A stretch of DNA of 64,000 nt, from the IMG/VR virus record IMGVR_UViG_3300028423_000356, positions 1-64,000 of that record, one strand, 5' to 3'. Positions 40,581-63,957 of this stretch are shown in pieces; within the stretch, counting starts at the first letter, position 1, and every line of letters starts with the position of its first letter. The DNA is from a virus. The notes beneath the pieces were generated by a model. It was not told the DNA's origin and ran no database searches. It was given only the letters and a program-made list of their open reading frames with translations. Made by a program: the position numbers and the translations under genes.

Positions 40581-41594
40581 ATGACTACTGAAGACTATAC
40601 ATTGAAAGACACTGGAAGAAGAAACTTTACGGTATCAAATTACCATAGAGTTAAAGAAGTGTTGCCACAACACATAGTTCAAAATTATCCACTGTTAGTA
40701 GGTCTTTTAGAATCCTATTTTGAATTTGAAGACTTAGAAAAATTCACTTTTACTGATTCTGACGGAACTCACACAATACCTGCTTCACCAACAAGATTAA
40801 TTCATGAAGTTTTAAAAGTGAGAGATATCAATGAAACTGATGAAACGTTATTAAACAATATTGAAGATGAATTGCTTTTAGGAACACAGTATTTTAGAGG
40901 TTTTATAGATAAAAGAACATCTGCAAAGTTTTCCAATAATTTGTATCGTGCAAAAGGAACTTTATATTCCATACAACAATTTTTTAAAATGTTTTTCGAT
41001 GAAGTTCCTGAAGTTAGATACACAAAACAAGATGTTTTTATCGTGGGCGAATCTAAAATAGGATGGGAAAGTCAAAAGTTTTTAACTAATGATAAACTAT
41101 ATCAAACATTAGCCATATTAATAAAAACAAGTATACCTATTAATGTGTGGAATGAAGTTTACAAACTATTTGTTCACCCTGCTGGTGTATACCTTGGTGC
41201 TAGAGTTCTTATAGAAGGGGTGGGAGATTTTGACTTAAACTTTATGCCTGATTATAAAGAAGATGAACAGTTGACCTTAATGAAAAGTCAAGGTAATATT
41301 AACACAGATGCAATCCCAGATTTGACATATCTAATTAAAGATGATAACCCAGAACTTAAAGTTAGAACTACCATACCTGGTGATATCAACACACTTGGCG
41401 ATATAACACTTGACCAACTTGATAAAACTTACAACAATTTAAAAGAATTTATTCAGGCATCATCACCAACTCTTGATAATGACTTCACAGATAGTGATTT
41501 AAAAGCAATGACCTTAGACCAAGATTGGATTACCTTGGATACTATGGATGAGGTTTCTTATCCAGTATTCTATGATTCTGACGAAAATGGTTAA
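40581..41594 (+). CDS. Baseplate wedge gp7-like (short)
   Basis: LP..YP..LY.AKGT..FF..FVHPAG. Confidence 0.75.
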   Translation: MTTEDYTLKDTGRRNFTVSNYHRVKEVLPQHIVQNYPLLVGLLESYFEFEDLEKFTFTDSDGTHTIPASPTRLIHEVLKVRDINETDETLLNNIEDELLLGTQYFRGFIDKRTSAKFSNNLYRAKGTLYSIQQFFKMFFDEVPEVRYTKQDVFIVGESKIGWESQKFLTNDKLYQTLAILIKTSIPINVWNEVYKLFVHPAGVYLGARVLIEGVGDFDLNFMPDYKEDEQLTLMKSQGNINTDAIPDLTYLIKDDNPELKVRTTIPGDINTLGDITLDQLDKTYNNLKEFIQASSPTLDNDFTDSDLKAMTLDQDWITLDTMDEVSYPVFYDSDENG

Positions 41595-41601
41595 AAATTT
41601 A

Positions 41602-41609
41602 TATAAATA
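41602..41609 (+). promoter_or_regulatory. T4-type late promoter
   Basis: TATAAATA. Confidence 0.75.
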
Positions 41610-41636
41610 ATATAAAAAGACAATTGGAAAATAATT

Positions 41637-42665
41637 ATGGCAAGAGAAATAATTAATATAGGACTACAACCAAATGATGGTAAAGGTGACACTCTAAGGC
41701 AACTTGGTATAAAGGTAAACAATAACTTTACTCAGTTGTTTGACGCTGTTTTTCATGATTCAGATTCAGCAGGAATGTCTGACTCTGATATTCAGTATAT
41801 TTCTAAACAGATAAATTTTGTTGGTATATCCTTTGATAATATTTTAAATTTTGAAGAAGGTAGTGAAGAAGTAACAAATACATTACCCTCCACAACAGGT
41901 GTTATATTAAACAATAATTCTGTTTCATTTATAAAAAATAAAACATTCAATAATTTGATGTTATCTGATTCAGAAAATGGTAATAAGTATATCTTAACAC
42001 CATCAATTATTGATAGTGACACTATCATAAATTTACCACCAGTATTAGATAGTGATACATTTCTTTTTGCTGAAACGTATCAAGATGTTTTTAATAAAAC
42101 TTATTATGCACCAAGAATCGCTGATTATCTTGCTGACAGTAATGGTGCACCAATAATTTCTATAAATAGAGTTCTTTCAGCAGCTAACAATGTATCAATA
42201 AGTAATGCACAAAAGGGTAACAGTCCAACAATCTCTGTTATAGGAAATCCAGATTACCAACCTTTAGATAGTGATATAGATTTAACAATAGAGACTAAAG
42301 GTTTAGGTGTGTTAAAAATAAACAATCCATTAGTTAAAGAAAATGATATTGTCGATTTTACATCTGGTGTATCATCAGATTCTGATTTATCACTTGATAA
42401 AGAAATAACACATTTCACAGGTGATAGTGATGGTCAAATTATTTTACCAACTCCAATTAAAGAAAACTTTGTGAAAAAACTTATAAATATTTCCAATAAC
42501 AATGTAGAAGTTATTCCAGAAGTATTTACGAACGGTTCTTCTATAGTAATGAAACCAAATTCTGTTGTAAAACTACACTACACTTCACTTGTTGGATGGA
42601 TGTTAGAAGAAAATATTATTTACGATTCAACAGAAACAAATGCCCTTTGGTATGTAAAACAATAA
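41637..42665 (+). CDS. gp9/gp10-like baseplate-fibre connector
   Basis: INIGxxPNDGxGDTLR..KxNxNF N-terminal motif. Confidence 0.75.
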   Translation: MAREIINIGLQPNDGKGDTLRQLGIKVNNNFTQLFDAVFHDSDSAGMSDSDIQYISKQINFVGISFDNILNFEEGSEEVTNTLPSTTGVILNNNSVSFIKNKTFNNLMLSDSENGNKYILTPSIIDSDTIINLPPVLDSDTFLFAETYQDVFNKTYYAPRIADYLADSNGAPIISINRVLSAANNVSISNAQKGNSPTISVIGNPDYQPLDSDIDLTIETKGLGVLKINNPLVKENDIVDFTSGVSSDSDLSLDKEITHFTGDSDGQIILPTPIKENFVKKLINISNNNVEVIPEVFTNGSSIVMKPNSVVKLHYTSLVGWMLEENIIYDSTETNALWYVKQ

Positions 42666-42678
42666 ATGAGAGAATAAA

Positions 42679-44094
42679 ATGGCAGCTATTATAACAGACG
42701 ATTTTAAAAAGAGAGTTTTAACTGATATTTATTCTGATTTTTTAGATTCAGAAAATAAATTCTATCTTGGTATAGGTAAACCAATAGTTTGGAACGATTC
42801 AGATATCCCTGTAACACCTCTAAACACTGAAAGAGAAATCAGAAACGCTAAATTAAACACAATATCAGTAAAGTTAATAAAAGACGCATCACGTGTAGCA
42901 AAAAGATATAATTGGTCAAGAGGCACTATATATAACACATATAATGATGATGTGAGAGAAGAAGACAATAATAACTATTATGTTATAACTGATGAAAATG
43001 AAGTTTTTGTGTGTATTGCTAATGGTAAAGATAATTTAGGTAACCCACAACCTTCAAGAATTAAACCAACATATGCAGACAGAGATACACCATTTTTATT
43101 AGAAGATGGATATATTTGGAAATTCTTATTCACAGTTGGAACACTAGAATCTTTAAAGTTTATGGGTGCAAACTATTTTCCAATTAGAGTTATTGATACA
43201 GAAACAGGAACAGACTCTGATAAATCAAGTGGATATGAATTAAAACAATATTACATACAACAAATAGCAACTCCTGGTGAGATATTAGGATATGAAGTTA
43301 TTGAAGGTGGTACAGAATACGATAATACTGTAGAACTTCAAATTGTGGGTGATGGTTTAGTAGAAGCAAAAGCAACAGCAAATGTTAACAATGGGACAAT
43401 AACTCATGTAGATGTAGCATTTGAAGATGAAAATAATGTTGATAGTGACAATTTAAACCTAGCATTTGGACAAGGTTATTCGTATGCAAGTGTTAATGTG
43501 ATACCAAATAATATTCGTTCCGAATCAGCAATTGATGCTGAAATTAGACCTATATTTGGTCCAAAAGATGGTTTGGGTGCAAATTCTTATGATGACTTAC
43601 GCTCTAATGCAATTATGTTTTACACAAATGCAGATGGTGATGTAAATGGAGATTGGATTGTTGGTAATGACTTTAGACAAGTCACACTCATGAATATTCC
43701 ATATATAAATGACCAAGAGGGTATAACATTAAAATCATTTGAAGTTGAATATGATAATGAATTTAATCCATTTACTGTGGATAATAAAATATTTTCTGAA
43801 ACTTCAGGGGCAGAAGCTTATGTTGTTAAAACAGAAGAAACCGTTGAAGAGACAACAAATAAAATAATAAATACAATATGGTATTTACAAAATGAAACTA
43901 CTGGTTTTAACAATTTCCAAGTTGAAGATGAAGTAAGTGAATTAAAAGGAACTGGTAATGGTACAATAACCAAATTAAATGATACACCAGATATTAATGT
44001 TATGGATGCTGAAGTTTTATATATAGACAATAGATACCCAGTAATGAGAACAATCAATCAAGAAGAAGATTTTAAAATAATTATAAAAATATAA
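42679..44094 (+). CDS. gp8: Baseplate wedge gp8
   Basis: MAAIIT..DGYIWKFL..NDFRQ..LYIDNR..Q.ED.KIII. Confidence 0.9.
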   Translation: MAAIITDDFKKRVLTDIYSDFLDSENKFYLGIGKPIVWNDSDIPVTPLNTEREIRNAKLNTISVKLIKDASRVAKRYNWSRGTIYNTYNDDVREEDNNNYYVITDENEVFVCIANGKDNLGNPQPSRIKPTYADRDTPFLLEDGYIWKFLFTVGTLESLKFMGANYFPIRVIDTETGTDSDKSSGYELKQYYIQQIATPGEILGYEVIEGGTEYDNTVELQIVGDGLVEAKATANVNNGTITHVDVAFEDENNVDSDNLNLAFGQGYSYASVNVIPNNIRSESAIDAEIRPIFGPKDGLGANSYDDLRSNAIMFYTNADGDVNGDWIVGNDFRQVTLMNIPYINDQEGITLKSFEVEYDNEFNPFTVDNKIFSETSGAEAYVVKTEETVEETTNKIINTIWYLQNETTGFNNFQVEDEVSELKGTGNGTITKLNDTPDINVMDAEVLYIDNRYPVMRTINQEEDFKIIIKI

Positions 44095-44106
44095 TGGAAG
44101 AGAATT

Positions 44107-47100
44107 ATGGCTGAAAAATTTACATCAAATACATTCAATGAAGTATATAAAGATGATTTCAATGCAGATGATAACTATCATAGAATATTATTCAATTCTG
44201 GTAGACCACTACAAGCAAGAGAACTAACACAATTACAAACTATAATTCAAGAGGAATTGTATAGATTTGGTAGTCACATTTTTAGAGAAGGTGCATCTGT
44301 AAATGCTGGTAATGTCACCTGTACAAATGTTGAATATATTAGATTAAACACAGAATTTTATCCTCTTCCTGAAAACATTTCGGATATAATAGGAGACACT
44401 TTTATCTCTGATACAACTCAATTCGAGTTCGTTGTAAATGATGTTTTAGAAGAAGTGTATGATAGTGATGGTGTAACATTATCAGAACCAGCAACACTCA
44501 TAATCTCATATACTGGTAGTAATTTAGACTCAGATGTGACAGTGAGAGATAGTGACGGTGAATACATAACTCCAAAAAGAATTATTTCAGAGGAAGTGTT
44601 GAATCAAGAAAGTGGTGATGTAACTTTAAAGGTTGAAACTCTTATTGAAAACGCTCAGTATCCAGTTGCAGGACAAGGAACTAAGTTGGCAGTTGAGACA
44701 GGGGACTTTTTTGCTGCTAAACACTTTGTTGAATCTAATGAACAATCTATTTATCTATCAAAGTATGTATCATTAGTTAACACAACTGTAGGATTTAAAG
44801 TTATTCAAGATATTGTAACAGTTGATGATACTGTTGACTTATACGATAATCAAGGTGATACACCAAATTTAACATCACCTGGAGCTGACCGATATAGAAT
44901 ACGTCTTGTATTAGAAGAAGAAAAAAATGTAAATTCAGAAGATAATTTTATTCCAATTGCCACTGTTGAAAACAGTATAGTTGTTTCTCAAATAAATCAA
45001 GGTGTAAATGAAATATACAATAAACTTGGTGATAATATTGCAAGAAGAACTTATGAAGAATCTGGAGATTATATTGCTGACAGATTTACTCTTAGATTTG
45101 AAGAAGGTGATAGTGATAACGCAGTTAATTTTGTAGTATCTCCTGGAATTGCGTATATAAATGGATATCGTGCAGAAATTAATAGAGATGAAGTTATATC
45201 TGTAAATAAACCAAGAAAAACACAGTTATTCACAGAAGAAACAGTTCCAGTTGAATATGGAAACTATTTATTGATGGAAACTAATGGTTCCAAAGGTCTA
45301 CCAGACATATCAACTTTTGAAGAATTAACACTAAAAAAGGGTAGAGACTTCTTAGATAGTGATATGGGGACAGTTCGTGTTCGTTCTATTGAAAAAGATG
45401 GAGATGATTTAAGATTTTATTTATTTGATTTTAACATTTTACCTGGTCAAAGAGAATCAGAAATATCTTCAATTGGTTCATCAACTAATAATTATTTTAA
45501 TGTAAATAAAGATTTCAATAATACAAGAACAATTCGTAAAGATGTATCTGGAAATGATTTATTATTCAATTTCCCTAATGCATATGTTGCCAATATATTA
45601 GAACAACCAACATCATTTGTCGCACAAAGACAATTTAATGAAACAACAAATAGCAGTGGTGAAGTTACAATTGGAACAAGTGGTTCATCTGACAAGTTCA
45701 CAGATTCAACTCTTTGGATTGCTTCCAAAGAAAATGGAGAATTGGTAAACATAACTAATAACCCAACTTTAAATCAAAGTACCACTACTTTGGTTCTTGA
45801 AGATGATCTTGGACTAGTTACTAACCAAAATGTGACAATATTAACATATGTATTTAAAGAAGATGCACAACCAAGAGCAAAAAGTAAAAATGAAATAACT
45901 GAAACTTTGACCCCTGATTTAAATGGAAACATCACACTGTCAAATGCAGATATTATTAACGTGATAGATATTTTAGATTCAGATGAAAACGGTTCTGATT
46001 TATCAGGAAGATATTCAGTTGATAACGGTCAAAGAGATAATTATTATGGATTAGGTAAATTAAATCTTATACCGGGTTCTACACCACCATCTAATAATGT
46101 TTATATAAAATATGAATATTATAGTCATGGTAATGGAGACTTTTTCTGTATAAACTCATATCCTGAGAAGGATAATGTTGAAACATATGGTGATATCCCA
46201 GTTTATACAAGTGAAACAGGTGATGAAATACCTCTAAGAGATGTGGTAGATTTTAGACCAACACAATCTTCTGATGGTTCGTTTTCAAATATAAATATCA
46301 ACGAATTACCAAGAAACACAGATTTATTCCAAACTGATGTTAACTACTATATGCCAAAAAATGCAAAGGTGGTTATAAATGAAAGTGGTGTAGTTGATGT
46401 AATTGAGGGTAAGGATGCTATGGATCCTAAAATGCCCACAACACCACCAACAGCTTTAGATTTGTATCTTGTTGAAATGGCACCATTTATGATTACACCC
46501 AAAGATTTAGGTGTAACAGCTGTAGAAGCAAAAAGATATACAATGAAAGATATTGGTGATTTAGAAGAAAGACTTGCCAATTTAGAAGAAACAACTGCTC
46601 TATCTATGTTAGAATTGTCAACTTCATCATTTCAGGTCTTAGATAATGATGGTAACATAAGAACTAAATCAGGTTTCTATGTAGATAATTTTGTGGATCA
46701 ATCAAGAGCAAAGGTTGATGATGTAGAATATCGTGCTTCAATAGACCCCTCACGCCAAATTATGAGACCATCATTTAGGGCAAGTGCAATCAAACTTGTT
46801 CCATTTGAACAGTCAAATAACAATGTAAATGCAGAAATATCTGGTGACTTTATTCATCTTAAAATAAAAGATCGTGAAGTTGTTTACCAAGAACAACCTT
46901 TTGCAACAGGAACTGAAAATGTTAACCCATTCTCAGTTGTGAGTAAACGTGGTGTTGTTACATTATCACCATCAAAAGATACTTGGATGGAAACAAGGTA
47001 TTTGACTGATAAAATCACATATGGAGATGACAAATTTAACGTAGATCAAAATCAACTTTGGGATAACTGGAGTTGGAATTGGACTGGTAATGAAAAAGTT

Positions 47101-55271: not shown

Positions 55272-56819
55272 ATGGCTTCAACAATTCTAATTAAGCGTTC
55301 CCAGTCAGCAGTTGCACCAAGTGTACTGAATTATGGTGAAATGGCTTACTCATTTGGATTAGAAAGACTTTATGTCGGTGATTCAGATGGAACAATAAAA
55401 ATTATTGGTGGTAAATCATTTACAGACTTACTAGACCACACACCAGGAACCCTTACAGCAAGTTCTGCATTGTTAGTAGACGCACAAGGTAAAATAGATA
55501 CATTACTTGTAGATGACTTAACACTGGATAGTAACGAAATTTCTACTCCAAATGGTGTAGATCTTGTTCTTAATTCAGGTAACAATGTTGATGTTAAAAA
55601 CACCAAAATTGTAAATCTAATTGACCCAACTAACAATCAAGATGCAGCAACCAAAGCATATGTAGATAATAGTGTAGGTGGATTATCAGCATCTTTAACA
55701 ATTACAGATGGAACTAATTCAGATACAGTTTCATTAGCAGATTCAGATTTATCACTTGTTGGTGGTACAGGATTAACTTCAAATGTTTCAGATAATACTG
55801 TAACATTCAATCTTGAAGACACTTCAGTTACAGCAGGAACTTACGGTAACTCAACAACAGTAGAAATTCCAATTATCACTGTTGATGCACAAGGTCGTAT
55901 CACATCCGCTTCAACTTATAATATTCCACCACTAACAATTAATGTTAATGATGGAACCGATTCAGATACCATTGATTTAATCGATTCTGATTTATCATTT
56001 GTTGGTGGAACTGGTATAGATGTTACATTAAACTCTGGAACAAACACTTTTAACATTTCAGGTAATGATGCAACAACTACTACAAAAGGTATTGCATCAT
56101 TTAACTCTTCAGATTTCTCTGTTGTTGCAGGTGCAGTATCAATTGCAGATGGTGGCGTATCAAATACACAACTACAAAACTCATCATTCACATTAGGAAC
56201 AGATGTAGTTAATCTTGGTGATACAATCACTGATATTAATGGTCTAACAAGTTTAGATGTTGATAATCTAACTCTTGATGGCGCAACAATAACTTCATCA
56301 ACAGGAACAGTAACAGTAGGTGATAATTTAATTGTTAATGGTGATTTACAAGTTAATGGAACACAAACTGTTGTGAATTCAACTGTAGTAGAAGTTGAAG
56401 ATATCAATATCGAGATTGCAAGTAACGTTTCTGCAGATTCAGATTCATTAGCAGATGGTGCTGGAATTACAGTTGGTGATAATGTTGCAAATGTGACTTG
56501 GAATTATGGTTCAGGTAATTCATTCTGGGATATTTCCAACCCACTAATGGTAACATTAAATGGTGCAACTAATCAAGATGCAATAAATGTTAGAGATTCT
56601 GCTGGTGACACATCACCAACTTCATTCTTTGAAATTATATTAACAGAAGGTTTCTTAGCAGGTGAAGGTATTGATTTATCTTATTCAGCAAACCAGTTAA
56701 CAGTTTCAGCTGAAGTAGCATCAACAACAAATCTTGGTGTTGCGTCTTTCGATTCTGATGATTTCAATGTTAATAGTGGTGTAGTTACACTCAACACAAT
56801 TGATGGTGGAACTTACTAA
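55272..56819 (+). CDS. Tail fibre-like protein
   Basis: ILIKRS..L.YGE.A, DAATKAYVD, TVDAxGR and IDGGTY motifs. Confidence 0.8.
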   Translation: MASTILIKRSQSAVAPSVLNYGEMAYSFGLERLYVGDSDGTIKIIGGKSFTDLLDHTPGTLTASSALLVDAQGKIDTLLVDDLTLDSNEISTPNGVDLVLNSGNNVDVKNTKIVNLIDPTNNQDAATKAYVDNSVGGLSASLTITDGTNSDTVSLADSDLSLVGGTGLTSNVSDNTVTFNLEDTSVTAGTYGNSTTVEIPIITVDAQGRITSASTYNIPPLTINVNDGTDSDTIDLIDSDLSFVGGTGIDVTLNSGTNTFNISGNDATTTTKGIASFNSSDFSVVAGAVSIADGGVSNTQLQNSSFTLGTDVVNLGDTITDINGLTSLDVDNLTLDGATITSSTGTVTVGDNLIVNGDLQVNGTQTVVNSTVVEVEDINIEIASNVSADSDSLADGAGITVGDNVANVTWNYGSGNSFWDISNPLMVTLNGATNQDAINVRDSAGDTSPTSFFEIILTEGFLAGEGIDLSYSANQLTVSAEVASTTNLGVASFDSDDFNVNSGVVTLNTIDGGTY

Positions 56820-56846: not shown

Positions 56847-56871
56847 AAGGGGAGTTTTTACTCCCCTTTTT
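56847..56871 (+). terminator. Intrinsic terminator-like hairpin
   Basis: AAGGGGAG-TTTTTA-CTCCCCTTTTT. Confidence 0.75.
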
Positions 56872-56900
56872 AGAATTAACCTTTTTTAAGGAGTTAGATA

Positions 56901-57515
56901 ATGTCAAATATAATATTAAAAAAATCTTCAGTTACAGGTAAAATACCAGGTATTGATGATTTGAACTATGGTGAATTAGCAATAAACTATCAAGATGGTA
57001 AAATATTTTATAAAACCGCTTCAAATGAAATAAAATCTTTTTTAGATTCAGATAACATTGAACAATTAGTTAATTACGCCAATGTTAATTTTGGTATAAA
57101 TTTAGGAAGTGATTCAAATCAACCTTTAGACTACTATGATGAAAATACTTTTACACCTGAAATTGTAAATAATAGCATATCTTACAACGTCCAAAATGGT
57201 GAATACACAAGAATAGGTAATATGGTTCACGTTGATATTACAATTGATGTATCATCATTAGATAAAACTGATACTTCAACATTTAAAATTAACGCTTTAC
57301 CATTTTTACCAAAATCAGATATAAACCCTTTAATGTATACAGTGAATGCTGGTAGGAGTAATTTATTAAATGGTCCACTAGAGTTAGAATTTGAATCTGA
57401 TAATAGTAGTTATTTACTAGGAACATCACAAAGTGGGGTTTTTGTGAGTTATGATGAATCGACTTTCAATTCTTCTGGTCAAATTTTTCTATCCCTTTCA
57501 TATAGAACTTCGTGA
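56901..57515 (+). CDS. Short fibre-like protein
   Basis: LKKSSV.GK.P..L.YGELAIN..DG; G.YTRIGNMV. Confidence 0.75.
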   Translation: MSNIILKKSSVTGKIPGIDDLNYGELAINYQDGKIFYKTASNEIKSFLDSDNIEQLVNYANVNFGINLGSDSNQPLDYYDENTFTPEIVNNSISYNVQNGEYTRIGNMVHVDITIDVSSLDKTDTSTFKINALPFLPKSDINPLMYTVNAGRSNLLNGPLELEFESDNSSYLLGTSQSGVFVSYDESTFNSSGQIFLSLSYRTS

Positions 57516-57527
57516 TTAATTTTTAAT

Positions 57528-57535
57528 TATAAATA
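57528..57535 (+). promoter_or_regulatory. T4-type late promoter
   Basis: TATAAATA. Confidence 0.75.
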
Positions 57536-57563
57536 ATTTAAAACAACTTAATAGGAATAAAAT

Positions 57564-58322
57564 ATGGCACAACCAACATCAAGAGATACATTGATAGAAT
57601 ATTGTTTAAGAAGACTTGGTGCTCCAGTATTGGAAATTAATGTCGATCCCGATCAAATTGATGATAAAGTTGATGATGCTCTACAAACATATAGACGTTT
57701 CCATTCTGAAGGAACATATAGAACTTATATATCTACTGAATTAACAGATAGTGATGTTGATAATAGATATATTGAACTACCTTCAGATGTGATGTATGTA
57801 ACAAGAGTGTTCCCAATGTCCGTAACGGGTGGTTCACAATCAAGAAACTTTTTTGATGTTAAATATCAAATTATGTTGAATGATATAACATCAATGCATT
57901 CTTATATAGGTGACTTGGCGTATTATGAACAAGTTATGCAATATCTTTCATTGATAGATATGAAACTATCTGGTTCTATTCAAGCTGATTATTCAAGAGT
58001 TCAGAATAGATTGTATATTTATGGTGAATTCGCTAATAAAGATATGGAAGCAGGAGATTATGTAGTTGTTGAGGTGTTTAGGGCACAAGATCCACAAGAA
58101 GCAACTAAGATATGGTCTGATTCTTTTATAAAGGATTATACAACCGCACTTATAAAACAACAGTGGGGTATGAATATGATGAAATTTGAAGGTATGCAAC
58201 TTCCAGGTGGTGTACAATTCAGTGGTCGTCAATATTATGAAGATGCAACTGAAGAACTACAAATGTTAAGACAAAGAATGCGTGATGAATATGAGTTACC
58301 ACCTGATTTCTTGGTTGGATAA
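57564..58322 (+). CDS. gp13: Neck protein gp13
   Basis: YCLRRLGAPVLEINV..QWG..KF.GMQLPGG. Confidence 0.95.
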   Translation: MAQPTSRDTLIEYCLRRLGAPVLEINVDPDQIDDKVDDALQTYRRFHSEGTYRTYISTELTDSDVDNRYIELPSDVMYVTRVFPMSVTGGSQSRNFFDVKYQIMLNDITSMHSYIGDLAYYEQVMQYLSLIDMKLSGSIQADYSRVQNRLYIYGEFANKDMEAGDYVVVEVFRAQDPQEATKIWSDSFIKDYTTALIKQQWGMNMMKFEGMQLPGGVQFSGRQYYEDATEELQMLRQRMRDEYELPPDFLVG

Positions 58323-58333
58323 AGGAATAGATT

Positions 58334-59194
58334 ATGGCAAGAAATTTTTATTTTTCACAAGGTGTAAAATCTGAACAAAATCTTTATGAAGATTTAATTA
58401 TAGAATCTCTTAAGATTTATGGTCAGGATGTATATTATTTACCACGTGAAATTGTTGATGAAGATAAACTTTTGGGTGAAGACGATCCATCAAGATTTGA
58501 AGAATCTTATAAAATTGAAATGTATATCGAAAACACAGAAGGTTTTGAAGGTGAAGGTGATTTGTTTACTAAGTTTGGTATAGAGATAAGAGATCAAGCA
58601 TCATTTATAGTTTCACGTAAAAGATGGAGAAATACTGTTGGTGATAACAGTAATACCATAGAGATAGATAGACCAAGAGAGGGTGATTTAATATATTTAG
58701 AATTATCACAATCATTATTTGAAATAAAACATGTTGAAAATGAAACACCATTCTACCAGTTAAAAAACCTACCAACATTCAGAATGCAATGTGAACTATT
58801 TGAGTATACAAATGAAGACTTTGATACAAATATTGAAGAAATAGATGATATAGATAATAGATATGCATATGAATATGTATTGGAAATGGAAACTAATGAT
58901 TATGAATTCCAAGTAGGCGAAGATATTAATCAGTTTTTACCATCTGGTATAACAATGTCTGGTGAAGTATCTCACTGGAATCCAGAAACAAGAATATTAA
59001 GAGTTATACACGTTGGTGCTGATGATGGTGATTATCACGAATTGGTATCACAAGTTCCTATTAATGGTATTAATGTATTGAATGTATCAGAAGATTTACA
59101 ACAAACCGATACAGAACAAAACCAAATAATATCTGATGATGCAATAAATATTTTAGATTTCAGTGAAACAAATCCGTTTGGAGAACCAGAATAA
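58334..59194 (+). CDS. gp14: Neck protein gp14
   Basis: EQxLYEDL..YLPR..RPREGDLIY..DFSETNPFG. Confidence 0.95.
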   Translation: MARNFYFSQGVKSEQNLYEDLIIESLKIYGQDVYYLPREIVDEDKLLGEDDPSRFEESYKIEMYIENTEGFEGEGDLFTKFGIEIRDQASFIVSRKRWRNTVGDNSNTIEIDRPREGDLIYLELSQSLFEIKHVENETPFYQLKNLPTFRMQCELFEYTNEDFDTNIEEIDDIDNRYAYEYVLEMETNDYEFQVGEDINQFLPSGITMSGEVSHWNPETRILRVIHVGADDGDYHELVSQVPINGINVLNVSEDLQQTDTEQNQIISDDAINILDFSETNPFGEPE

Positions 59195-59949
59195 TGTTAG
59201 GCACTTATTTTTATCATAAAAGAATACGAAAATCAGTTGCAGTGTTTGGTTCACTGTTCAACAATATATACGTGTTGCGTTCAGGAGCAAATGGTGAAGT
59301 ATTCAACCAACAAAAAGTTCCTTTATCTTATGCTCCTCGTGAAAAATTCTTAGATAGAATTAGAGAAAATGAAGATTTACAATCAGACACTAAAGTTGCA
59401 GTAAAATTGCCCAGAATGTCCTTTGAAATGTTGGCAATTGATTATGACCCTCAAAGACAACTACCAAAAACAAATAAATTTAAAAGATTAAATGAAGAAT
59501 ATGGTCCAGCAAATATATACACACCAGTTCCATATAATATAACATTTCAATTAAATATATTAGCAAAACAACAAGAAGATGCTTTACAAATTGTGGAACA
59601 AATAATACCATTTTTTAATCCACAGTATTCTGTTTCTATTAAACCCATTGATGAATATCCAGAATTAATTGAGGATACACCAATTATATTGAATGGTGTT
59701 ACATTTTTAGATGATTATGAGGGAAGTTTAGAAGATAGAAGAACTATTTTATACACTTTAGATTTTACTATGAAAATTAATTTCTATGGTAGTATTGATA
59801 CTAATGAAACATTGATTACTAAGTCAATAGTTGATATACAAGATACAAGAGATGGTAGTGGTTCAAGGATAACAGTAGTTCCAGACCCTGCAGATGCTTC
59901 ACCTGACAGTGACTACGGATTTAATGTTACAATCGATCCTATTGAATAA
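59194..59949 (+). CDS. gp15: Tail sheath stabiliser/terminator gp15
   Basis: YFYH..FGSLFN..VPLSY..LPRMSFE..EQI.PFF.P. Confidence 0.95.
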   Translation: MLGTYFYHKRIRKSVAVFGSLFNNIYVLRSGANGEVFNQQKVPLSYAPREKFLDRIRENEDLQSDTKVAVKLPRMSFEMLAIDYDPQRQLPKTNKFKRLNEEYGPANIYTPVPYNITFQLNILAKQQEDALQIVEQIIPFFNPQYSVSIKPIDEYPELIEDTPIILNGVTFLDDYEGSLEDRRTILYTLDFTMKINFYGSIDTNETLITKSIVDIQDTRDGSGSRITVVPDPADASPDSDYGFNVTIDPIE

Positions 59950-59964
59950 ATAAAGGAGAATGAT

Positions 59965-60144
59965 ATGATTGATAAAGAATTAAGAGAAGAAAGACTAAGA
60001 GTATGTGAAACTTGTGAATTTTATAATGATAAAAGAACTATAGCAGGATTAAGAGATGTTAGATGTGATGCTTGTGGATGTAATCTAAAATTAAAAGCAT
60101 ACATAAAAATGTCTAAATGTCCAAAAGATAAATGGAAAAGATAA
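59965..60144 (+). CDS. Small Cys-rich protein (not in ORF track)
   Basis: AAGGAG RBS; CxxC..CxxCGC..K..CPxxKW. Confidence 0.75.
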   Translation: MIDKELREERLRVCETCEFYNDKRTIAGLRDVRCDACGCNLKLKAYIKMSKCPKDKWKR

Positions 60145-60555
60145 ATGACTAAAGATTCTGATAATACTCAAGTTACATTAATTGAAGAGGATAAAACTGC
60201 TCAAGAAGATATTGAGTTTGTTAGAAATTCATATTACAATCTCATAAACTATGGAAATGAAGCACTTGAAGAAATGATAGAAGTTGCCAAATCAACAGAA
60301 CATCCTCGTGCTTATGAAGTGTTATCAAATATGTTGAAACATGTTTCAGAACTTAATGGAAATCTACTAGATTTACATAAAAAGAAAAAAGAAATAAATA
60401 AAGAAGAACAAGAAAAAATATTAGAAAATAATAAAACAACCAATAATTTATTCGTAGGTTCAACAACCGAACTACAAAAAATGTTATCAAAGGTGAATGA
60501 TGATAACAATAATTCTCAAGAAGATATTATTGATGTAACACCAGAAGAAGATTAA
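60145..60555 (+). CDS. gp16: Terminase small subunit gp16
   Basis: D.E..R..A..HPRAYEV..NNLFVGSTTELQKML. Confidence 0.92.
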   Translation: MTKDSDNTQVTLIEEDKTAQEDIEFVRNSYYNLINYGNEALEEMIEVAKSTEHPRAYEVLSNMLKHVSELNGNLLDLHKKKKEINKEEQEKILENNKTTNNLFVGSTTELQKMLSKVNDDNNNSQEDIIDVTPEED

Positions 60556-60556
60556 T

Positions 60557-62179
60557 ATGAATGAAAGAAGTGATTCATACTTAGGTAATCCAAATGTTAA
60601 ACGTGATGGTGTGTCAACACCATTTACCCAAGAACAAATCTTGGAATACAAAAAATGTATGGATGACCCAGTATATTTTGCAAAAAAATATTGTAAAGTT
60701 GTTTCTCTTGATGAAGGTCTCATAGATTTTGATCTATATCCTTATCAAGAAAAAATGTTTAATCAATTTAATGAAAATAGATTTAATATTGTATTAGCTT
60801 GTCGTCAGTCAGGTAAATCAATTTCTTCAGTTGCATATCTCTTGTGGTTTGGTATTTTTCATTCTGAAAAAACAATCGTAATTCTTGCCAACAAAGGTGC
60901 AACTGCAAAGGAAATGTTAGCAAGAATTACCATAATGCTTGAAAATTTACCTTTTTTCATTCAACCTGGATGTAAAGCATTAAACAAACACACAATAGAA
61001 TTTTCCAATAATTCAAGGATAGTTGCTGCAGCAACATCAGCATCATCAATTCGTGGTATGTCCGCTTCATTACTTTATTTGGACGAATTTGCTTTCGTTG
61101 AAAATGCATCTGAATTCTATACATCCACTTATCCAGTTATCACGTCAGGTAAAAGCACAAAGGTTATTATAACATCAACGGCAAATGGTGTAGGCAACAT
61201 GTTCCATAAATTATGGGAAGGTGCTGTTCAGGGTGTTAATGAATACATACCATTTAGAGTAGATTGGTGGGATGTTCCTGGGAGAGATGAAAAATGGAAA
61301 GAACAAACTATTAATAATACATCTGAAATACAATTCGACCAAGAATTTGGAAATACATTCTTTGGAACAGGTGATACCCTTATTGAGTCATCCGCTCTTT
61401 TAGAACAAAAAAGGATGCATTATAAACACCTATTGGAAAATAATTGTTTAAGAATATATGAAGAACCAGAAATAGGACATGAATATATAATGACAGTTGA
61501 TGTATCAAAGGGTGTTGGGGGTGACTATTCAACATTTAATATAATAGATGTTACATCAAGACCATTTAGACAAGTTGCAGTATATAGAAATAATAAAATA
61601 TCACCTGTGTTATTCCCAAATATAATTGTTAAGTATGCTGAAAAATATAATAAATGTTATGTTGTAGTTGAAAACAATGATCAGGGTGCTGTTGTATGTA
61701 ATGGTATATATTTTGATTTAGAATACGAAAATTTCTATATGGAATCATCAACAAAATCAACAGGTTTGGGTGTAACTATGAATAAAAAAGTGAAAAGACT
61801 TGGTTGTTCAGCGATTAAAGATATTGTTGAAAATCGCAAAATAAATATTGTTGACGATGAAACCATCATAGAAATGTCAACCTTTGTCTCGAAAGGACAT
61901 TCATTTGAGGCATCTCAAGGTAATCACGATGATTTAATGATGAATCTTGTATTGTTTGGGTATTTTACTAACACACAGTTTTTTGGTGATTTAATAGGTG
62001 TTAATATGAAATCGGTATTATTTGATAAAGAAGTTAATGAAATAGATGAAAACATAGTTCCCTTTGGTTTTATTGATGATGGATTAGATGATGCACTAAC
62101 AGCTGAAGAACATTTGGAAAGAACATATGATTGGTCATTAAATACGGTTTATGAGACTGAAGAATGGGGTAATTTTTAA
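60557..62179 (+). CDS. gp17: Terminase large subunit gp17
   Basis: YLGNPNVK, RQSGKS, LYLDEFAF, STANG and HDDL motifs. Confidence 0.97.
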   Translation: MNERSDSYLGNPNVKRDGVSTPFTQEQILEYKKCMDDPVYFAKKYCKVVSLDEGLIDFDLYPYQEKMFNQFNENRFNIVLACRQSGKSISSVAYLLWFGIFHSEKTIVILANKGATAKEMLARITIMLENLPFFIQPGCKALNKHTIEFSNNSRIVAAATSASSIRGMSASLLYLDEFAFVENASEFYTSTYPVITSGKSTKVIITSTANGVGNMFHKLWEGAVQGVNEYIPFRVDWWDVPGRDEKWKEQTINNTSEIQFDQEFGNTFFGTGDTLIESSALLEQKRMHYKHLLENNCLRIYEEPEIGHEYIMTVDVSKGVGGDYSTFNIIDVTSRPFRQVAVYRNNKISPVLFPNIIVKYAEKYNKCYVVVENNDQGAVVCNGIYFDLEYENFYMESSTKSTGLGVTMNKKVKRLGCSAIKDIVENRKINIVDDETIIEMSTFVSKGHSFEASQGNHDDLMMNLVLFGYFTNTQFFGDLIGVNMKSVLFDKEVNEIDENIVPFGFIDDGLDDALTAEEHLERTYDWSLNTVYETEEWGNF

Positions 62180-62196
62180 TTGTATTTTCTTAAAAA

Positions 62197-62210
62197 TATA
62201 AATATAAATA
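62197..62210 (+). promoter_or_regulatory. Tandem T4-type late promoters
   Basis: TATAAATATAAATA. Confidence 0.75.
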
Positions 62211-62277
62211 TGAAAAACGAAATTGAATTCCTTATAATGATAAAACTTATAATTAAAACTCTAGAGAGGTAAAAACA

Positions 62278-63957
62278 ATGGCTTTATTTAACCCTTCCGC
62301 TTCTCCTGCAGTTGTTGTTCGTGAAGTAGACTTAACAGGTGGTGTACCTAATGTCCAATCTTCAACAGGTGTATTCGTAGGTAACTTTAACTGGGGTCCA
62401 GTATTACAAAGAACATTAATAGGTTCTGAATCTGGTCTAGCAGAAACTTTCACAACACCAAATAAAACAAATGCAAGAGACTTTATTTCAGCTGCGAAAT
62501 TTTTGACTTATTCGCAAGCTCTATATGTAACAAGAATCATAGATGAAAATGCTTCTAATGCTTATACTGATATCAATGAACTAATTGATTCGGACAACAT
62601 TTCATCAGCATTTGATTCAGCAGATTATAAAAAAATAACAATAAGAAACGAAGAAGAATTTGAAATACTTAAAATGTCCTTAGATGTGATTTCAGCAAAT
62701 TGGATTGCTAGATTTCCGGGTGCTTTAGGTAATTCATTAAAAGTATCATACCATTCTGGTGGAACTGGATTTGAAAATTGGGAATATTCTGATTTTTTCG
62801 ATGCTGCACCAAATAATGACGAAGTTCATGTTGTGGTAGTAGATGAAAATGGTTTATTCACTGGTAGTGAAAACACAGTTCTTGAAACTTATCAATTTGT
62901 TTCAAAAGACCCAATTGCTAAAAACCCAAATGGTACTACAAATTATATTAATGATGTGATAAATAACAAATCACAATATGTGTATTTCACAGGTTCAGCA
63001 GATTCATTTTCAGGATCTGAATCAAAATCATTTGATATGGGTAACGATTCATCATCTATAGGTGTTGATGAATACCAAATAGGATTTGATTTATATAATG
63101 ATATAGAAACAGTAACTATCGATTTTTTAATTTCACCAAGTATGGTTAACAGAACTGACCATGTTACTATGGTTAATTATTTGGTAAGTATTGCAGAAGG
63201 TGAACGTAAAGATTGTGTTGTAATAACATCACCAGCAGTTTCAGATATGGATGAATTCAATCCTGACAATATAAACACTAATATTATCGAAACATCAAAG
63301 GGATACACACGTTCATCATATTTAGTTGCTGAAAACAACTTTTTAAAGGTATATGATAAATATAACGATCAATATATCGATATTCCTGCTGCTTCTTCAA
63401 CTGCTGGTATTATGGCAGCAACTGACTTAAATGCAGCACCTTGGTTTTCCCCAGCAGGAACAAGACGTGGAAACTACTTGGGTGTAACAACTCTTAAATA
63501 CAATCCAACAAAAAAACATAGAGATGAACTTTATAAAGTTGGTGTAAACCCAATTGCTAATATTCCGGGTCAAGGTATTCTTCTATATGGAGATAAAACT
63601 TTCCTCGCAAGACCTTCAGCATTTGATAGAATTAATGTTCGTCGTCTATTTTTAGTTCTTGAAAGAGCAATTTCAAGAGCAGCAAAAAATGTAATTTTTG
63701 AACTTAACGATGAGTTCACTCGTGCCGAATTTGTTAACATTGTGGAACCTGTTCTACGTGAAGTACAAGGTCGTCGTGGACTAACAGACTATAAAGTTGT
63801 TTGTGATGAAACAAATAACACTCCAGCTGTTGTAGATCGCAATGAGTTCGTAGCAAACATCTTCATCAAACCAACACGTTCAATCAACTTTGTAACACTA
63901 AACTTTGTTGCAGTTAGATCTGGTGTGTCATTTGAAGAAGTTGTTGGAACAGTATAA
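62278..63957 (+). CDS. gp18: Tail sheath protein gp18
   Basis: SP.V.VREVDLT, WFSPAG.RRG, FDRINVRRLF and IKP.RSINF motifs. Confidence 0.97.
   Translation: MALFNPSASPAVVVREVDLTGGVPNVQSSTGVFVGNFNWGPVLQRTLIGSESGLAETFTTPNKTNARDFISAAKFLTYSQALYVTRIIDENASNAYTDINELIDSDNISSAFDSADYKKITIRNEEEFEILKMSLDVISANWIARFPGALGNSLKVSYHSGGTGFENWEYSDFFDAAPNNDEVHVVVVDENGLFTGSENTVLETYQFVSKDPIAKNPNGTTNYINDVINNKSQYVYFTGSADSFSGSESKSFDMGNDSSSIGVDEYQIGFDLYNDIETVTIDFLISPSMVNRTDHVTMVNYLVSIAEGERKDCVVITSPAVSDMDEFNPDNINTNIIETSKGYTRSSYLVAENNFLKVYDKYNDQYIDIPAASSTAGIMAATDLNAAPWFSPAGTRRGNYLGVTTLKYNPTKKHRDELYKVGVNPIANIPGQGILLYGDKTFLARPSAFDRINVRRLFLVLERAISRAAKNVIFELNDEFTRAEFVNIVEPVLREVQGRRGLTDYKVVCDETNNTPAVVDRNEFVANIFIKPTRSINFVTLNFVAVRSGVSFEEVVGTV

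Follow-up and report, generated by a model that had tools for sequence, protein, structure and literature searches.

A serine-specific D-S-D motif in outer baseplate and fibre proteins of a marine T4-like phage, and a putative glycosyltransferase module that may serve it

Genes at the locus

The window, meaning the whole 64,000-nt stretch of DNA analysed here (positions 1 to 64,000 of IMG/VR record IMGVR_UViG_3300028423_000356), comes from a marine T4-like phage. The genes on which the analysis bears are given below with their strand.

13386..13787, +, glutaredoxin with acidic tail, not a virion protein; 4 DSD (DSDSD, DSD, DSD)
14257..14934, +, GT25-like protein, 225 aa; PF01755 21.7 bits, under the Pfam cut-off of 24
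14936..15589, +, GT25 glycosyltransferase, 217 aa; PF01755 67 bits
15599..16249, +, GT25 glycosyltransferase, 216 aa; PF01755 59.3 bits; homologue in relative G001 50% identical
16261..16959, +, GT8-like / PmgQ-like glycosyltransferase by fold match, 232 aa
16952..17557, +, predicted sialyltransferase-fold protein, 201 aa; start overlaps the end of 16261-16959
30682..40563, +, inner baseplate contrast set (gp48-, gp53-, gp5/27-, gp25- and gp6-like); 1 DSD in 3436 aa
40581..41594, +, gp7-like outer baseplate protein, 337 aa; 3 DSD (residues 59, 304, 332); Poisson p 6e-4
41637..42665, +, gp9/gp10-like baseplate-fibre connector, 342 aa, phrog_677; 7 DSD; p 6e-9
42679..44094, +, gp8 baseplate wedge protein, 471 aa, phrog_438 (PF09215 is listed for most homologues, not for this gp8 itself); 3 DSD (40-42, 179-181, 255-257)
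44107..49515, +, VrlC-like large virion protein, 1802 aa, phrog_358; 7 DSD; p 3e-5
49750..51693, +, tail fibre, 647 aa; 10 DSD, 9 within the first 225 residues; p 3e-9
51729..54638, +, tail fibre, 969 aa; 4 DSD; p 3e-3
54659..55012, +, phrog_1084 / fibre-assembly-like protein, 117 aa; 2 DSD; p 2e-3
55272..56819, +, structural protein, phrog_15769, 515 aa; 6 DSD; p 5e-5
56901..63957, +, fibre-N-terminus-like ORF, gp13, gp14, gp15, gp16, gp17 and gp18; 0-1 DSD each, 5 in total

DSD is over-represented at the protein level

The motif was counted ORF by ORF in a greedy non-overlapping ORF set. Between 40581 and 63957 there are exactly 47 DSD tripeptides, where a preliminary description had about 47 with identical per-ORF numbers: 3, 7, 3, 7, 10, 4, 2 and 6 in the ORFs starting at 40581, 41637, 42679, 44107, 49750, 51729, 54659 and 55272, and one each in ORFs 56901, 57564, 59194, 60145 and 62278. 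The significant block is narrower than the range first drawn. Eight ORFs in 40581-56819 reach significance on their own (Poisson p from 3e-3 down to 3e-9), whereas none in 56901-63957 does, and gp13, gp15, gp16 and gp18, earlier counted as members, have single sites that do not reach significance; gp15 homologues in relatives carry 2-3 DSD. Beyond the window, the coiled-coil ORF 69209-70834, with 541 aa, contains 10 DSD versus 0.57 expected. The first 30 kb hold 5 DSD and not about 6, four of them, as described, in the glutaredoxin tail (ORF 13386-13787) and one in 18918-19178. One further DSD, beyond 30 kb, lies in ORF 31692-32522.

When each protein was shuffled within itself 300 times, the 43 DSD of ORFs 40581-57515 (5550 aa) compared with a mean of 3.30 (sd 1.79, maximum 8), in line with the earlier statement that composition alone would give only a few, and a first-order Markov model gave 9.7. 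By the same shuffles, ORFs below 30 kb have 5 versus 2.5 expected and inner baseplate ORFs 30682-40563 have 1 versus 1.3. No tripeptide is more strongly over-represented than DSD (z 21.1; the runner-up is VTL, z 8.1), while in the window DTD and DDD are absent against expectations of 4.0 and 3.6. No DSD excess was found in the capsid, sheath and tube proteins, the largest exposed surfaces.

An origin of the excess in chance, composition, a DNA-level repeat or a methylation-site effect deserves practically no credence. In favour of such an origin are the low GC content of the genome (29%), the abundance of D and S, the many DNA methyltransferase genes and the GANTC site within GAT-TCN. However, no shuffle exceeded 8, and of the matches to GAY-(TCN|AGY)-GAY 43 are in the coding frame, none is in either of the other two frames and one is on the reverse strand. 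The Ser codons inside DSD mirror background usage (TCA 23, AGT 18, TCT 15, TCG 2, TCC 1), with AGT, which makes no GANTC, at 18 of 59 and not below background. The pattern also recurs in relatives of 32-45% GC. These results refute a chance, composition or DNA-repeat origin and bear out the earlier view that selection acts on the protein motif; the data support a Ser-specific enrichment at the level of the protein.

The motif in relatives

To see the pattern beyond this phage, 80 IMG/VR loci around gp8 homologues were taken as relatives. They contain 689 DSD versus 121.8 expected. The boundary between protein types is sharp and falls between gp6 and the gp7-like protein. Among outer proteins of these loci, observed and expected counts are 129 and 15.3 for gp7-like, 54 and 6.2 for gp10-like, 176 and 19.7 for gp8, and 233 and 36.1 for VrlC, whereas inner proteins have none (gp6 homologues 0 versus 11.8 in 55 proteins, gp25 0 versus 2.2). 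The same protein boundary is present in the 144-kb relative G001.

By tripeptide, the relatives show DSD at 748 versus 124 expected, DSA at 508 versus 137 and DSS at 300 versus 156; all other DS-x are at or below expectation, and no DxD whose central residue is G, A, N, T, D or E shows enrichment. Judged from these sequences, the motif class in relatives reads as D-S-[D/A/S], of which this phage uses almost only D-S-D. The third residue differs by lineage (in G022, DSA 94 versus 8.7 and DSD 12 versus 7.5), and identical columns in an alignment of 120 gp8 homologues switch among DSD, DSS and DSA. The columns of the three gp8 sites carry DSD in 54, 70 and 22 of the 120. Since Ala cannot chelate metal, D-S-[D/A/S] fits enzyme recognition better than metal binding; the repeated Ca2+/Mg2+ binding first offered as an alternative is weakened by this interchange and by the lack of enrichment of other DxD. 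Our literature search found no paper on a D-S-[D/A/S] tag of phage tail proteins.

Location of the sites in structure

In an AF2 model of this phage's gp8 (pLDDT 87.7), all three DSD sites are in coil, and 265 of the 325 DSD of the 120 homologues map to coil or insertions, the coil content of the model being 53%. The loop placement that had been suggested for a check on AlphaFold models is thus seen in gp8. The gp8 sites are 4-9 residues before the next helix, and hence are not helix caps. In fibres, the motif repeats at the starts of short repeat units, such as xDSAYIQARQ in G022 and DSDLQAQ in ORF 69209, and two of the four DSD of fibre 51729..54638 are inside PKD-like 'S-x-DSD-x-x-L-S-Y-Q-W' repeats. 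It should be mentioned that the recurrence at repeat starts could also reflect a structural role.

The glycosyltransferase module

The glycosyltransferase cluster noticed earlier at 14257-17557 is real, with GT25 Pfam matches, a GT8-like fold and a sialyltransferase fold. The product of 16261..16959 has no Pfam match. Its ESM Atlas structure aligns with a TM of 0.85 to a viral 'GT8 family' cluster and of 0.84 to viral proteins that carry the same domain fused to an MptE-like domain; tblastn identities are 58% to C48C1, 29% to Mosig and 25% to P1 PmgQ. The product of 16952..17557 has no Pfam or PDB sequence match. From its AF2 model (pLDDT 73.5), it is predicted to have the CstII/Cst-I/ST8Sia fold: the best Foldseek match is CstII (1RO7, E 6.7e-5), and VIA-align gives Z 11.1 over 188 aligned residues (rmsd 4.2), with unrelated entries near Z 5. 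GT25 and GT42-type sialyltransferases usually extend glycans (LOS, collagen-Hyl), rather than start chains on protein Ser. No nonulosonic-acid synthesis or CMP-sugar genes and no Glycos_transf_1/GT4-type enzyme were found in a Pfam search of the genome.

The gene order GT25 - (16261) - 16952 is conserved in relatives. At least 522 contigs encode a relative; in the 80 loci kept, which were selected for a 16952 homologue, a 16952-like ORF is shown in 75, a 15599-like one in 59 and a 14257-like one in 57. A search of 50,697 phage records found a homologue of 16952 in C48C1 alone. Early-gene regions flanking the module are not enriched in DSD (49 versus 87.9 expected). No late-promoter box TATAAATA lies directly 5' of 14257; such a box stands 15-50 nt ahead of many structural genes.

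Joint distribution of module and motif

The module was found in this phage, G001, G002 and G004, and a 16952 homologue in G021, G022 and G024; all seven genomes are motif-rich. GT25 was not found in S-PM2, HTVC008M, T4 and C48C1. Six T4-like phages without the module have no DSD excess, with observed/expected counts of 2/5.2 in S-PM2, 4/5.3 in HTVC008M, 2/3.4 in T4, 2/3.5 in Mosig, 2/3.6 in vB_OspM_OC and 6/4.9 in S-SKS1. Mosig has a distant 16261 homologue (29%), yet no excess, and C48C1, with 16261 and 16952 but no GT25, has a partial one (12 versus 4.8). The co-occurrence anticipated in the preliminary description is therefore present, in that motif-rich genomes with enough sequence have the module and the six phages without it lack the excess. 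However, the comparison essentially sets one clade against outgroups, so that every gene peculiar to this clade would show as good a correlation; shared ancestry confounds the co-occurrence, which does not count as independent evidence. The motif-rich contig G003 (57 kb, 31% complete) has no GT25, 16952 homologue or other glycosyltransferase in the 44 kb upstream of gp8, and about 27 kb upstream of gp8 in G007 is likewise without the module. The module of G003 may lie elsewhere, as in G021, where it is 82 kb from gp8.

A putative tag for serine O-glycosylation

Because the motif stands far above chance and the same phages keep private sugar-transferase genes, we read it as a tag, and on the outer baseplate and fibres of this clade it is probably one for sugar attachment. 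An enzyme would recognize D-S-[D/A/S] as a short sequon placed in surface loops of the gp7-like, gp9/10-like, gp8, VrlC-like and fibre proteins and of the coiled-coil fibre beyond the window. The central Ser would be the modified residue, and the most likely modification would be O-glycosylation in the cytoplasm by the conserved module that the phage itself encodes, i.e., three GT25 proteins, the GT8-like transferase 16261-16959 and the sialyltransferase-fold protein 16952-17557, with a chain possibly capped by a nonulosonic (sialic-acid-like) sugar. We give a putative Ser O-glycosylation sequon served by this module a probability of about one half. We infer from the motif and the gene content both that the Ser is modified and that the module modifies it; which enzyme starts the chain and which sugar is added are likewise proposals. 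If the proposal is true, the host-recognition apparatus gains a glycan coat. Of the DSD-tag reading as first put forward, the Ser-specific protein-level excess, the glycosyltransferase cluster and their co-occurrence stand; the Bacteroidota sequon and the membership of gp13, gp15, gp16 and gp18 do not.

The motif could instead be a structural loop element without modification, a strand-to-loop or repeat-start turn (Asx/ST turn) that possibly binds sea-water cations and that the outer folds of this clade happen to use, in which case the module would act on host LPS/LOS or on a collagen-like protein (genome 66315-67559). We regard this as possible but rather unlikely. Sites at strand-to-loop transitions, with W enriched 7.8x and F 3.0x at position -2 and G 2.2x directly after the motif, agree with such a turn, as do the position conservation of several gp8 sites (one column is D-S in 101 of 120) and the regular recurrence at repeat-unit starts in fibres; the collagen-like ORF is present in the genome, and GT25 relatives act on LOS or collagen. 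However, a turn or cap preference would let in T, N, G and P as well, whereas Ser is required here: DTD occurs 74 times versus 141 expected, DT-x shows no enrichment, and the counts of DGD, DAD and DND match expectation. The relatives use DSA as often as DSD, which makes a DxD chelate unlikely. The homologous proteins of the six other T4-like phages lack the excess, so their folds do not need the motif, and the gp8 sites occupy loops of unrelated kinds as well as insertions.

The specificity arguments for a sequon also apply to a tag read by a factor other than the glycosyltransferase module, whether for phosphorylation, sulfation or acylation of the Ser or for a phage assembly factor or chaperone of outer-tail proteins. 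Possible modifiers in the genome are an ORF of a sulfotransferase family (97722-98399) and an O-methyltransferase; immediately 3' of the fibre genes, relatives encode a variety of modifying enzymes, among them an Asp/Asn hydroxylase, a GT8, a radical SAM protein and a protein with a weak kinase-like match. Such a factor nevertheless seems unlikely to us: a Pfam search found no protein kinase in the genome, PF03567 is a carbohydrate sulfotransferase family, and the other enzymes are not conserved across the compared motif-rich genomes, whereas the glycosyltransferase module is.

Comparison with known systems

To our knowledge, no short sequon of the D-S-[D/A/S] kind is known for mycobacteriophage virions, which, according to Freeman et al. 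in 2023, are reportedly glycosylated by phage-encoded glycosyltransferases. As in the mycobacteriophages, the enzymes proposed here are phage-encoded and the targets would be the phage's own virion proteins. The targets there are reportedly capsid and tail tube, whereas here capsid, sheath and tube are without excess, and the glycosyltransferase genes there adjoin structural genes, whereas here the module is about 25 kb from its proposed targets. Phage-encoded glycosyltransferases are thought or have been shown to decorate own virion proteins (PMC11256854, available part).

General O-glycosylation in Bacteroidota takes place in the periplasm, on proteins that have been exported; virion proteins, in contrast, are cytoplasmic. 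Its sequon, to which the preliminary description had linked DSD, is D-(S/T)-(A/I/L/V/M/T) in the accessible portion of PMC8550257, and DSD falls outside it. Both are three-residue sequons of Asp followed by a hydroxyl residue, and the relatives' common DSA fits. In contrast, DSD and DSS do not, Thr is unused, and DSV, DSL, DSI and DST are depleted in relatives. In the window, the counts of DSA, DSI, DSL, DSV, DST and every DT-x equal or come close to expectation, and the Bacteroidota sequon was rejected.

Maf enzymes transfer nonulosonic acids onto surface Ser/Thr of flagellin (PMC11339370; 10.1101/2020.06.03.131540; both in part), a filament protein glycosylated in the cytoplasm. ORF 16952 is predicted to share the fold of Maf and CstII (GT42), with Z 11.1 to CstII (PDB 1RO7) and 10.5 to MptE-like HPPK, and has no sequence-level match to PF01973 or any PDB chain. 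Unlike Maf, it is far smaller, with 201 aa, and no flagellin-type substrate is involved.

The staphylococcal enzymes SdgB and SdgA, cytoplasmic and acting in sequence, add GlcNAc to Ser of DSD motifs in Ser-Asp repeat adhesins, and the glycan protects the adhesins from proteolysis (PMC3794999, available part). The staphylococcal acceptor is a long tandem SD-repeat, and the system is bacterial, whereas the phage tripeptides are isolated in folded proteins with unrelated flanks, and phage relatives would accept DSA and DSS as well. The phage candidates are GT25, GT8-like and sialyltransferase-fold proteins, with no Glycos_transf_1/GT4-type enzyme found by Pfam. The two systems would be alike in the Ser of Asp-Ser-Asp as acceptor and in surface proteins as targets.

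Genome organization

The record is a 135,502-bp single-contig virus with a GC content of 29%, the window being its first 64 kb, and PHROG and Pfam matches identify it as a T4-like myophage. Among cultured phages, C48C1 (Kyanoviridae; 39% identity in gp6 and 30% in gp8) is the closest, and no nucleotide-level match was found among 50,697 phage records. The Pfam scan covered 106 ORFs (41 in the early window and 65 beyond 64 kb), the 30 late ORFs of the window being assigned with PHROGs only. ORFs are named by their start coordinates.

Virion genes and other annotated features (window coordinates unless marked)
30682-40563 (+), inner baseplate genes, gp48-, gp53-, gp5/27-, gp25- and gp6-like (PHROG/Pfam)
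40581-49515 (+), outer baseplate genes, gp7-like, gp9/10-like, gp8 and VrlC-like (PHROG/Pfam)
49750-56819 (+), fibres (PHROG/Pfam)
57564-63957 (+), gp13 to gp18 (PHROG/Pfam)
1450-2082, dATP/dGTP diphosphohydrolase-domain protein
6269-7255, C5-cytosine methyltransferase
7915-8424, homologue of Tad3, a Thoeris inhibitor
8684-9559, EcoRI-type adenine methyltransferase
genome 131776-135067, type I R-M M/S pair, with further methyltransferases elsewhere in the genome

It is noted that two PKD/Big_9-domain proteins outside the window (genome 70952-72565 and 72586-73821) both terminate in a Cys motif, (N/K)-Y-C-P-S-N-C-x-(L/F)-F-(T/Q).

DSD excess in the outer baseplate and fibre proteins

The preliminary description had counted about 47 Asp-Ser-Asp (DSD) tripeptides in the virion proteins and few in the early region. 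An ORF-by-ORF count reproduces exactly 47 from 40581 onward, with five below 30 kb and one more in 31692-32522. When each protein was shuffled 300 times, ORFs 40581-57515 were found to hold 43 DSD against 3.30 ± 1.79 (maximum 8); the first-order Markov expectation for the same ORFs is 9.7. DSD is the top over-represented tripeptide with a z of 21.1, the runner-up reaching 8.1. The shuffles and this ranking reject composition or chance as the source, and we regard an artefact as extremely improbable. Asp follows DS in 43 of 63 cases in these ORFs. Both DTD (0 observed/4.0 expected) and DDD (0/3.6) are missing from the window, and the other DS-x counts are DSA 2/1.6, DSI 1/3.0, DSL 1/3.1, DSV 1/3.0, DST 2/4.2 and DSE 3/2.2.

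In the coding frame the DSD codon pattern is found 43 times; neither of the other two frames has any, and the reverse strand has one. The Ser codons within DSD follow background usage. Selection therefore acts on the peptide, as had been claimed; the frame specificity, together with the use of AGT codons, also rejects a DNA repeat or a GANTC methylation-site effect. The range first proposed, 40581 to 63957, stands in part: eight ORFs in 40581-56819 are individually significant, but the single sites in 56901, gp13, gp15, gp16 and gp18 are not. The capsid and tube proteins have no DSD, and the sheath has one. The sites are isolated with unrelated flanks. Outside the window, ORF 69209-70834, encoding a 541-aa Ala-rich coiled coil, contains 10 DSD, with A-[AG]-DSD-L-Q-A as the recurrent surrounding sequence.

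It should be mentioned that DSDSD is found only in a glutaredoxin (13386-13787) encoded two ORFs upstream of the glycosyltransferase genes, whose C-terminal acidic tail has four DSD (DSDSD...DSD...DSD). The 144-kb relative G001 has the homologous domain within a larger protein of 662 aa.

As controls we used proteins of at least 250 aa encoded in structural regions (41-50 kb each) of T4-like phages.

Tripeptides in control phages (observed/expected)
S-PM2: DSD 2/5.2; DSA 4/4.3
HTVC008M: DSD 4/5.3; DSA 8/5.6
T4 (74-124 kb only, long tail fibres outside): DSD 2/3.4
Mosig: DSD 2/3.5
vB_OspM_OC: DSD 2/3.6
S-SKS1: DSD 6/4.9
C48C1: DSD 12/4.8; DSA 8/4.9; DSE 9/4.0

A DSD excess is absent in S-PM2, HTVC008M, T4, Mosig, vB_OspM_OC and S-SKS1, so the folds of these homologous proteins do not need the motif. 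C48C1 is intermediate, with its excess in the gp10-like protein and one fibre.

Motif class and protein boundary in the clade

Of 546 gp8 homologues found, the 120 listed (37-50% identical, on contigs from marine metagenomes, the longest 171 kb) contain 325 DSD against 30.8 expected. DS[DAS] occurs at least twice in 118 of these 120, with a median of 6. The remaining two, P0002 (50% identical) and P0007, have none, and no loci encoding them were found in viral contigs. About nine columns of the gp8 alignment hold the sites; each is filled in 10-70 of the 120 sequences, and DSD, DSS and DSA alternate within them. A search of viral contigs with the single gp8 protein gave no match; the alignment-based IMG/VR scan succeeded and found at least 592 related contigs, from which 80 loci were kept. 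In these loci DSD is found 689 times versus 121.8 expected, and DTD 73 versus 134. The excess is carried by the outer baseplate homologues (gp7-like 129/15.3, gp10-like 54/6.2, gp8 176/19.7, VrlC-like 233/36.1), and the inner baseplate homologues give 0/11.8 for gp6 (55 proteins), 0/2.2 for gp25 and 12/14.4 for the remaining families (32528 to 37652) pooled. The same DSD layout extends genome-wide in G001, which has 42% GC. The DSD excess is a property of the clade, with a sharp protein boundary.

Pooled over the clade structural regions, DSD (748/124), DSA (508/137) and DSS (300/156) are enriched, and all other DS-x are at or below expectation (DSE 27/84). Only Asp is enriched as x in x-S-D. 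The motif class is D-S-[D/A/S]. The third residue differs among relatives: it is almost only Asp in ORFs 40581-72000 of this phage (DSD 59/6.1, DSA 3/3.6, DSS 4/6.1), mixed in G001 (41 DSD, 45 DSA, 21 DSS), and mostly Ala in the relative G022 (DSA 94/8.7), where a single fibre (at least 2623 aa, with repeats of the xDSAYIQARQ type) accounts for 72 of the DSA. This fibre, ORF 32130-40001 of the joined contig pieces L196+L197, also has 15 DSS; its repeats include LDSAAVTGIIDSAYIQARQ, and the commonest motif spacing is nine residues. Flanking the clade sites, Trp (7.8-fold) and Phe (3.0-fold) are enriched at position -2 and Gly (2.2-fold) at the first residue after the motif.

Repeated Ca2+/Mg2+ binding, offered in the preliminary description as the alternative to a tag, is disfavoured by these counts, in that DSA and DSS replace DSD and other DxD are not enriched: with Gly, Ala, Asn, Thr, Asp or Glu in the middle, no enrichment is seen (DGD 132/111, DAD 103/110, DND 74/97, DED 57/67, DDD 52/99). 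It is chiefly this interchange of D, A and S at the third residue, with Ser strictly kept, that speaks against a DxD cation site or a plain turn or cap motif. As a separate observation, about 51 of 732 clade sites read DSD-x-x-H-x-H, a 6.5-fold enrichment of His at the third and fifth residues following the motif. None of the sites of this phage has it, and the probable source is a single conserved site with an HxH metal motif in a protein of a relative.

In an AF2 model of gp8 (34-sequence alignment, pLDDT 87.7), 53% of which is coil, all three DSD sites of this phage are in coil. Of the 325 DSD of the 120 listed homologues placed on this model, 187 fall in coil, 78 in insertions, 58 in one strand-edge column and 2 in helix. 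A helix N-cap role was rejected, as the gp8 sites are 4-9 residues before the next helix or in hairpin loops and Thr is unused.

Glycosyltransferase module

The proposed glycosyltransferase (GT) cluster at 14257-17557 is confirmed by Pfam matches to GT25 and by GT8-like and sialyltransferase folds.

Genes of the module
14257-14934 (+), GT25-like (PF01755), 21.7 bits, below the cut-off of 24
14936-15589 (+), GT25 (PF01755), 67 bits, cut-off 24
15599-16249 (+), GT25 (PF01755), 59.3 bits, cut-off 24
16261-16959 (+), GT8-like
16952-17557 (+), predicted sialyltransferase fold

ORF 16261 has no Pfam match; its structure resembles viral GT8-family models (TM 0.85) as well as fusions of this domain with an MptE-like one, and its sequence relatives include C48C1 (58%), Mosig (29%) and P1 PmgQ (25%). 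The start of ORF 16952 overlaps its end. For ORF 16952, no match to Pfam PF01973/PF06002 or to a PDB sequence was found at E up to 10. The AF2 model of its 201 residues has a pLDDT of only 73.5. Foldseek places CstII, Pasteurella sialyltransferase and Cst-I at the top (best E of 6.7e-5; 13 matches with E ≤0.001), and an ESM Atlas search agrees on this sialyltransferase lead. VIA-align gives a Z of 11.1 with CstII (1RO7; 188 of 201 residues aligned, rmsd 4.2), 10.9 with Cst-I (2P56), 10.5 with MptE-like HPPK (8SD5) and 8.2-8.4 with mammalian sialyltransferases, unrelated rows being at about 5. The protein is thus predicted from its model to have a CstII/GT42-type sialyltransferase or MptE-like fold over most of its length. 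An N-terminal GNGD/GNGP motif is present in the family alignment, which we take to resemble the CstII motif.

Relatives of 16952 were found in at least 522 IMG/VR contigs. Among the 80 loci kept, all in T4-like early-gene context, 59 have a 15599-like GT25, 57 have a 14257-like gene, and in 10 a 16261-like gene immediately precedes 16952; these regions are not themselves DSD-enriched (49 versus 87.9). In prokaryote assemblies the homologues occur at nine loci, all on short MAG contigs, the longer of which carry T4-like genes (gp32, gp33, denV) and the short ones only the homologue; no cellular gene context was seen around any of the nine. Their MAG bins are Bacteroidota in four cases (Flavobacteriales, Sphingobacteriales, Planktosalinus, Bacteroidetes), the others being Melainabacteria (two contigs from a single MAG), Microbacteriaceae, Limisphaerales and Porticoccaceae; as a pointer to the host group this is weak. 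Homologues of 16261 are found downstream of fibre genes in 4 of 80 loci, and relatives vary in the modifying enzyme encoded just after the fibre genes, examples being an Asp/Asn beta-hydroxylase (L038:20397-21062), a GT8 (L034:10800-11447, (-) strand) and a radical SAM protein (L019:13475-14152).

The late-promoter box TATAAATA occurs 44 times versus about 36 expected and precedes many structural genes at a distance of 15-50 nt. None is directly upstream of 14257; one is inside 14257, 287 nt before 14936.

A DNA-hypermodification role for the cluster is less likely, since the 106 ORFs scanned gave no Pfam match of thymidylate-synthase-like, dCMP-hydroxymethylase or TET/JBP type (cf. PMC13326640, in part), but the two C5-cytosine methyltransferases in the genome would allow it.

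Other possible acceptors and tailoring genes lie outside the window. Directly after the portal gene, genome 66315-67559 (L002:2315-3559) encodes a 414-aa collagen-like protein whose G-x-y runs are Lys- and Asp-rich (GERGPKGRDGKD...). Since collagen galactosyltransferases belong to the GT25 family, this protein is a possible alternative GT25 acceptor. A Sulfotransfer_2 (PF03567) ORF (genome 97722-98399, L003:13722-14399) and O-methyltransferase, PMM-like fragment and cupin ORFs in L003 (92167-92727 and 103102-103859) could be glycan-tailoring genes.

Joint distribution of motif and module

The relatives G001, G002 and G004 have both GT25 and the 16952 family; they are the records of the gp8 set that reach that region, and the remaining 17 of the 20 searched are 12-31% complete. 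Four of the five large records found via 16952 have the gp8 type, and the three of these that were analysed (G021, G022 and G024) are all motif-rich. The expected co-occurrence is seen, with 7/7 module-bearing genomes examined motif-rich and 6/6 module-less genomes not, which is close to one phylogenetic contrast. Among the 50,697 records, C48C1 is the only cultured phage with a 16952 homologue; it has 16261 and 16952 without GT25, alongside its intermediate motif excess. GT25 is absent from S-PM2, HTVC008M, T4 and C48C1, and weak GT25-like matches are found in cyanophages S-PRM1, S-CAM9 and S-8S53. The module is 82 kb from gp8 in G021. In the motif-rich G003 (31% complete), whose early region is rearranged, no GT was found in 44 kb upstream of gp8, and in G007 the module was not seen in about 27 kb upstream of gp8. 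G003 is thus a possible counterexample, although a module may lie elsewhere in it, as in G021.

Interpretation

The combined evidence is best explained by a tag on Ser that is read by an enzyme, because Ser is strict, D, A and S are tolerated after it, the sites are in loops with unrelated flanks, and the set of proteins is fixed, and also because the motif is absent from the homologous proteins of other phages and is accompanied by a private, syntenic GT module. We put the probability that D-S-[D/A/S] is a Ser O-glycosylation sequon at about 0.5. The modification would most likely take place in the cytoplasm before assembly, with the GT8-like enzyme (16261) as a plausible chain initiator, the GT25 enzymes as plausible extenders, and the 16952 protein, judging from its modelled fold, as a possible capping enzyme or Maf-like direct Ser transferase. 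The complete proposal is that an abundant, uncultured clade of marine T4-like phages repeats a three-residue sequon dozens to more than a hundred times, in host-recognition proteins only, and that the phage-private module reads it so that baseplate rim and fibres are glycan-coated, perhaps with a sialic-acid-like cap; it is tentative and less likely than not. A purely structural motif would match the loop positions, but it has to accommodate the D/A/S interchange and the motif-free folds of the control phages; we consider it rather unlikely. The chance that the tag is read by something other than the GT module is slightly smaller again.

If the sequon is real, it would be the first case of a phage glycosylating proteins at a sequon, extending virion glycosylation beyond actinobacteriophages in a rule-based form readable from sequence, so that glycosylated sites could be predicted from metagenomes, in one of the ocean's commonest phage groups (at least 592 gp8-type and 522 16952-type contigs). 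It would explain the strict synteny of the sialyltransferase-fold gene with the GT25 genes. It would also give these phages a new factor in adsorption, stability, or evasion of hosts and grazers at sea, and would bear on how hosts are recognised and on how stable and sticky the particles are in sea water. Even without a sugar, the motif is unexplained and strongly selected; it is restricted to the outer tail, and the homologous proteins of other T4-like phages lack it.

Comparison with known systems

No paper was found that describes DSD or DS-x tags of phage virions, and none reporting that marine T4-like phages carry sialyltransferase-like genes; the only literature match joining the DSD motif, glycosylation and phage was the staphylococcal SdgA/SdgB paper. 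There, the Ser of DSD is the O-GlcNAc acceptor for SdgB/SdgA (PMC3794999, in part). The present system is similar in having Asp on both sides of the candidate acceptor, with 47 DSD in the late ORFs of the window and Ser required. It differs in having isolated sites rather than a long tandem SD repeat, and in its enzymes: the module is GT25, GT8-like and sialyltransferase-fold, and no GT4-type (GT-B) Pfam family related to SdgB/TarM was found among the 106 ORFs scanned (41 early window, 65 beyond 64 kb).

The Bacteroidota O-glycosylation sequon, D-(S/T)-(A/I/L/V/M/T) (PMC8550257, in part), had been invoked for the motif. This tie fails for DSD, as DSA, DSI, DSL, DSV, DST and DTD are not enriched in the window; the clade is enriched in DSA but not in DSV, DSL, DSI, DST or DTA. 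Virion proteins assemble in the cytoplasm, and periplasmic transfer to exported proteins of the Bacteroidota type is therefore implausible here. Maf offers another precedent, in which sialyltransferase-fold enzymes glycosylate surface Ser/Thr of a filament protein (PMC11339370; 10.1101/2020.06.03.131540; both in part). In mycobacteriophage-type virion glycosylation, phage-encoded GTs act on capsid or tail-tube proteins. In the present phage, GTs are encoded, and the candidate tag is found 0 times in the capsid, 0 times in the tube and once in the sheath.
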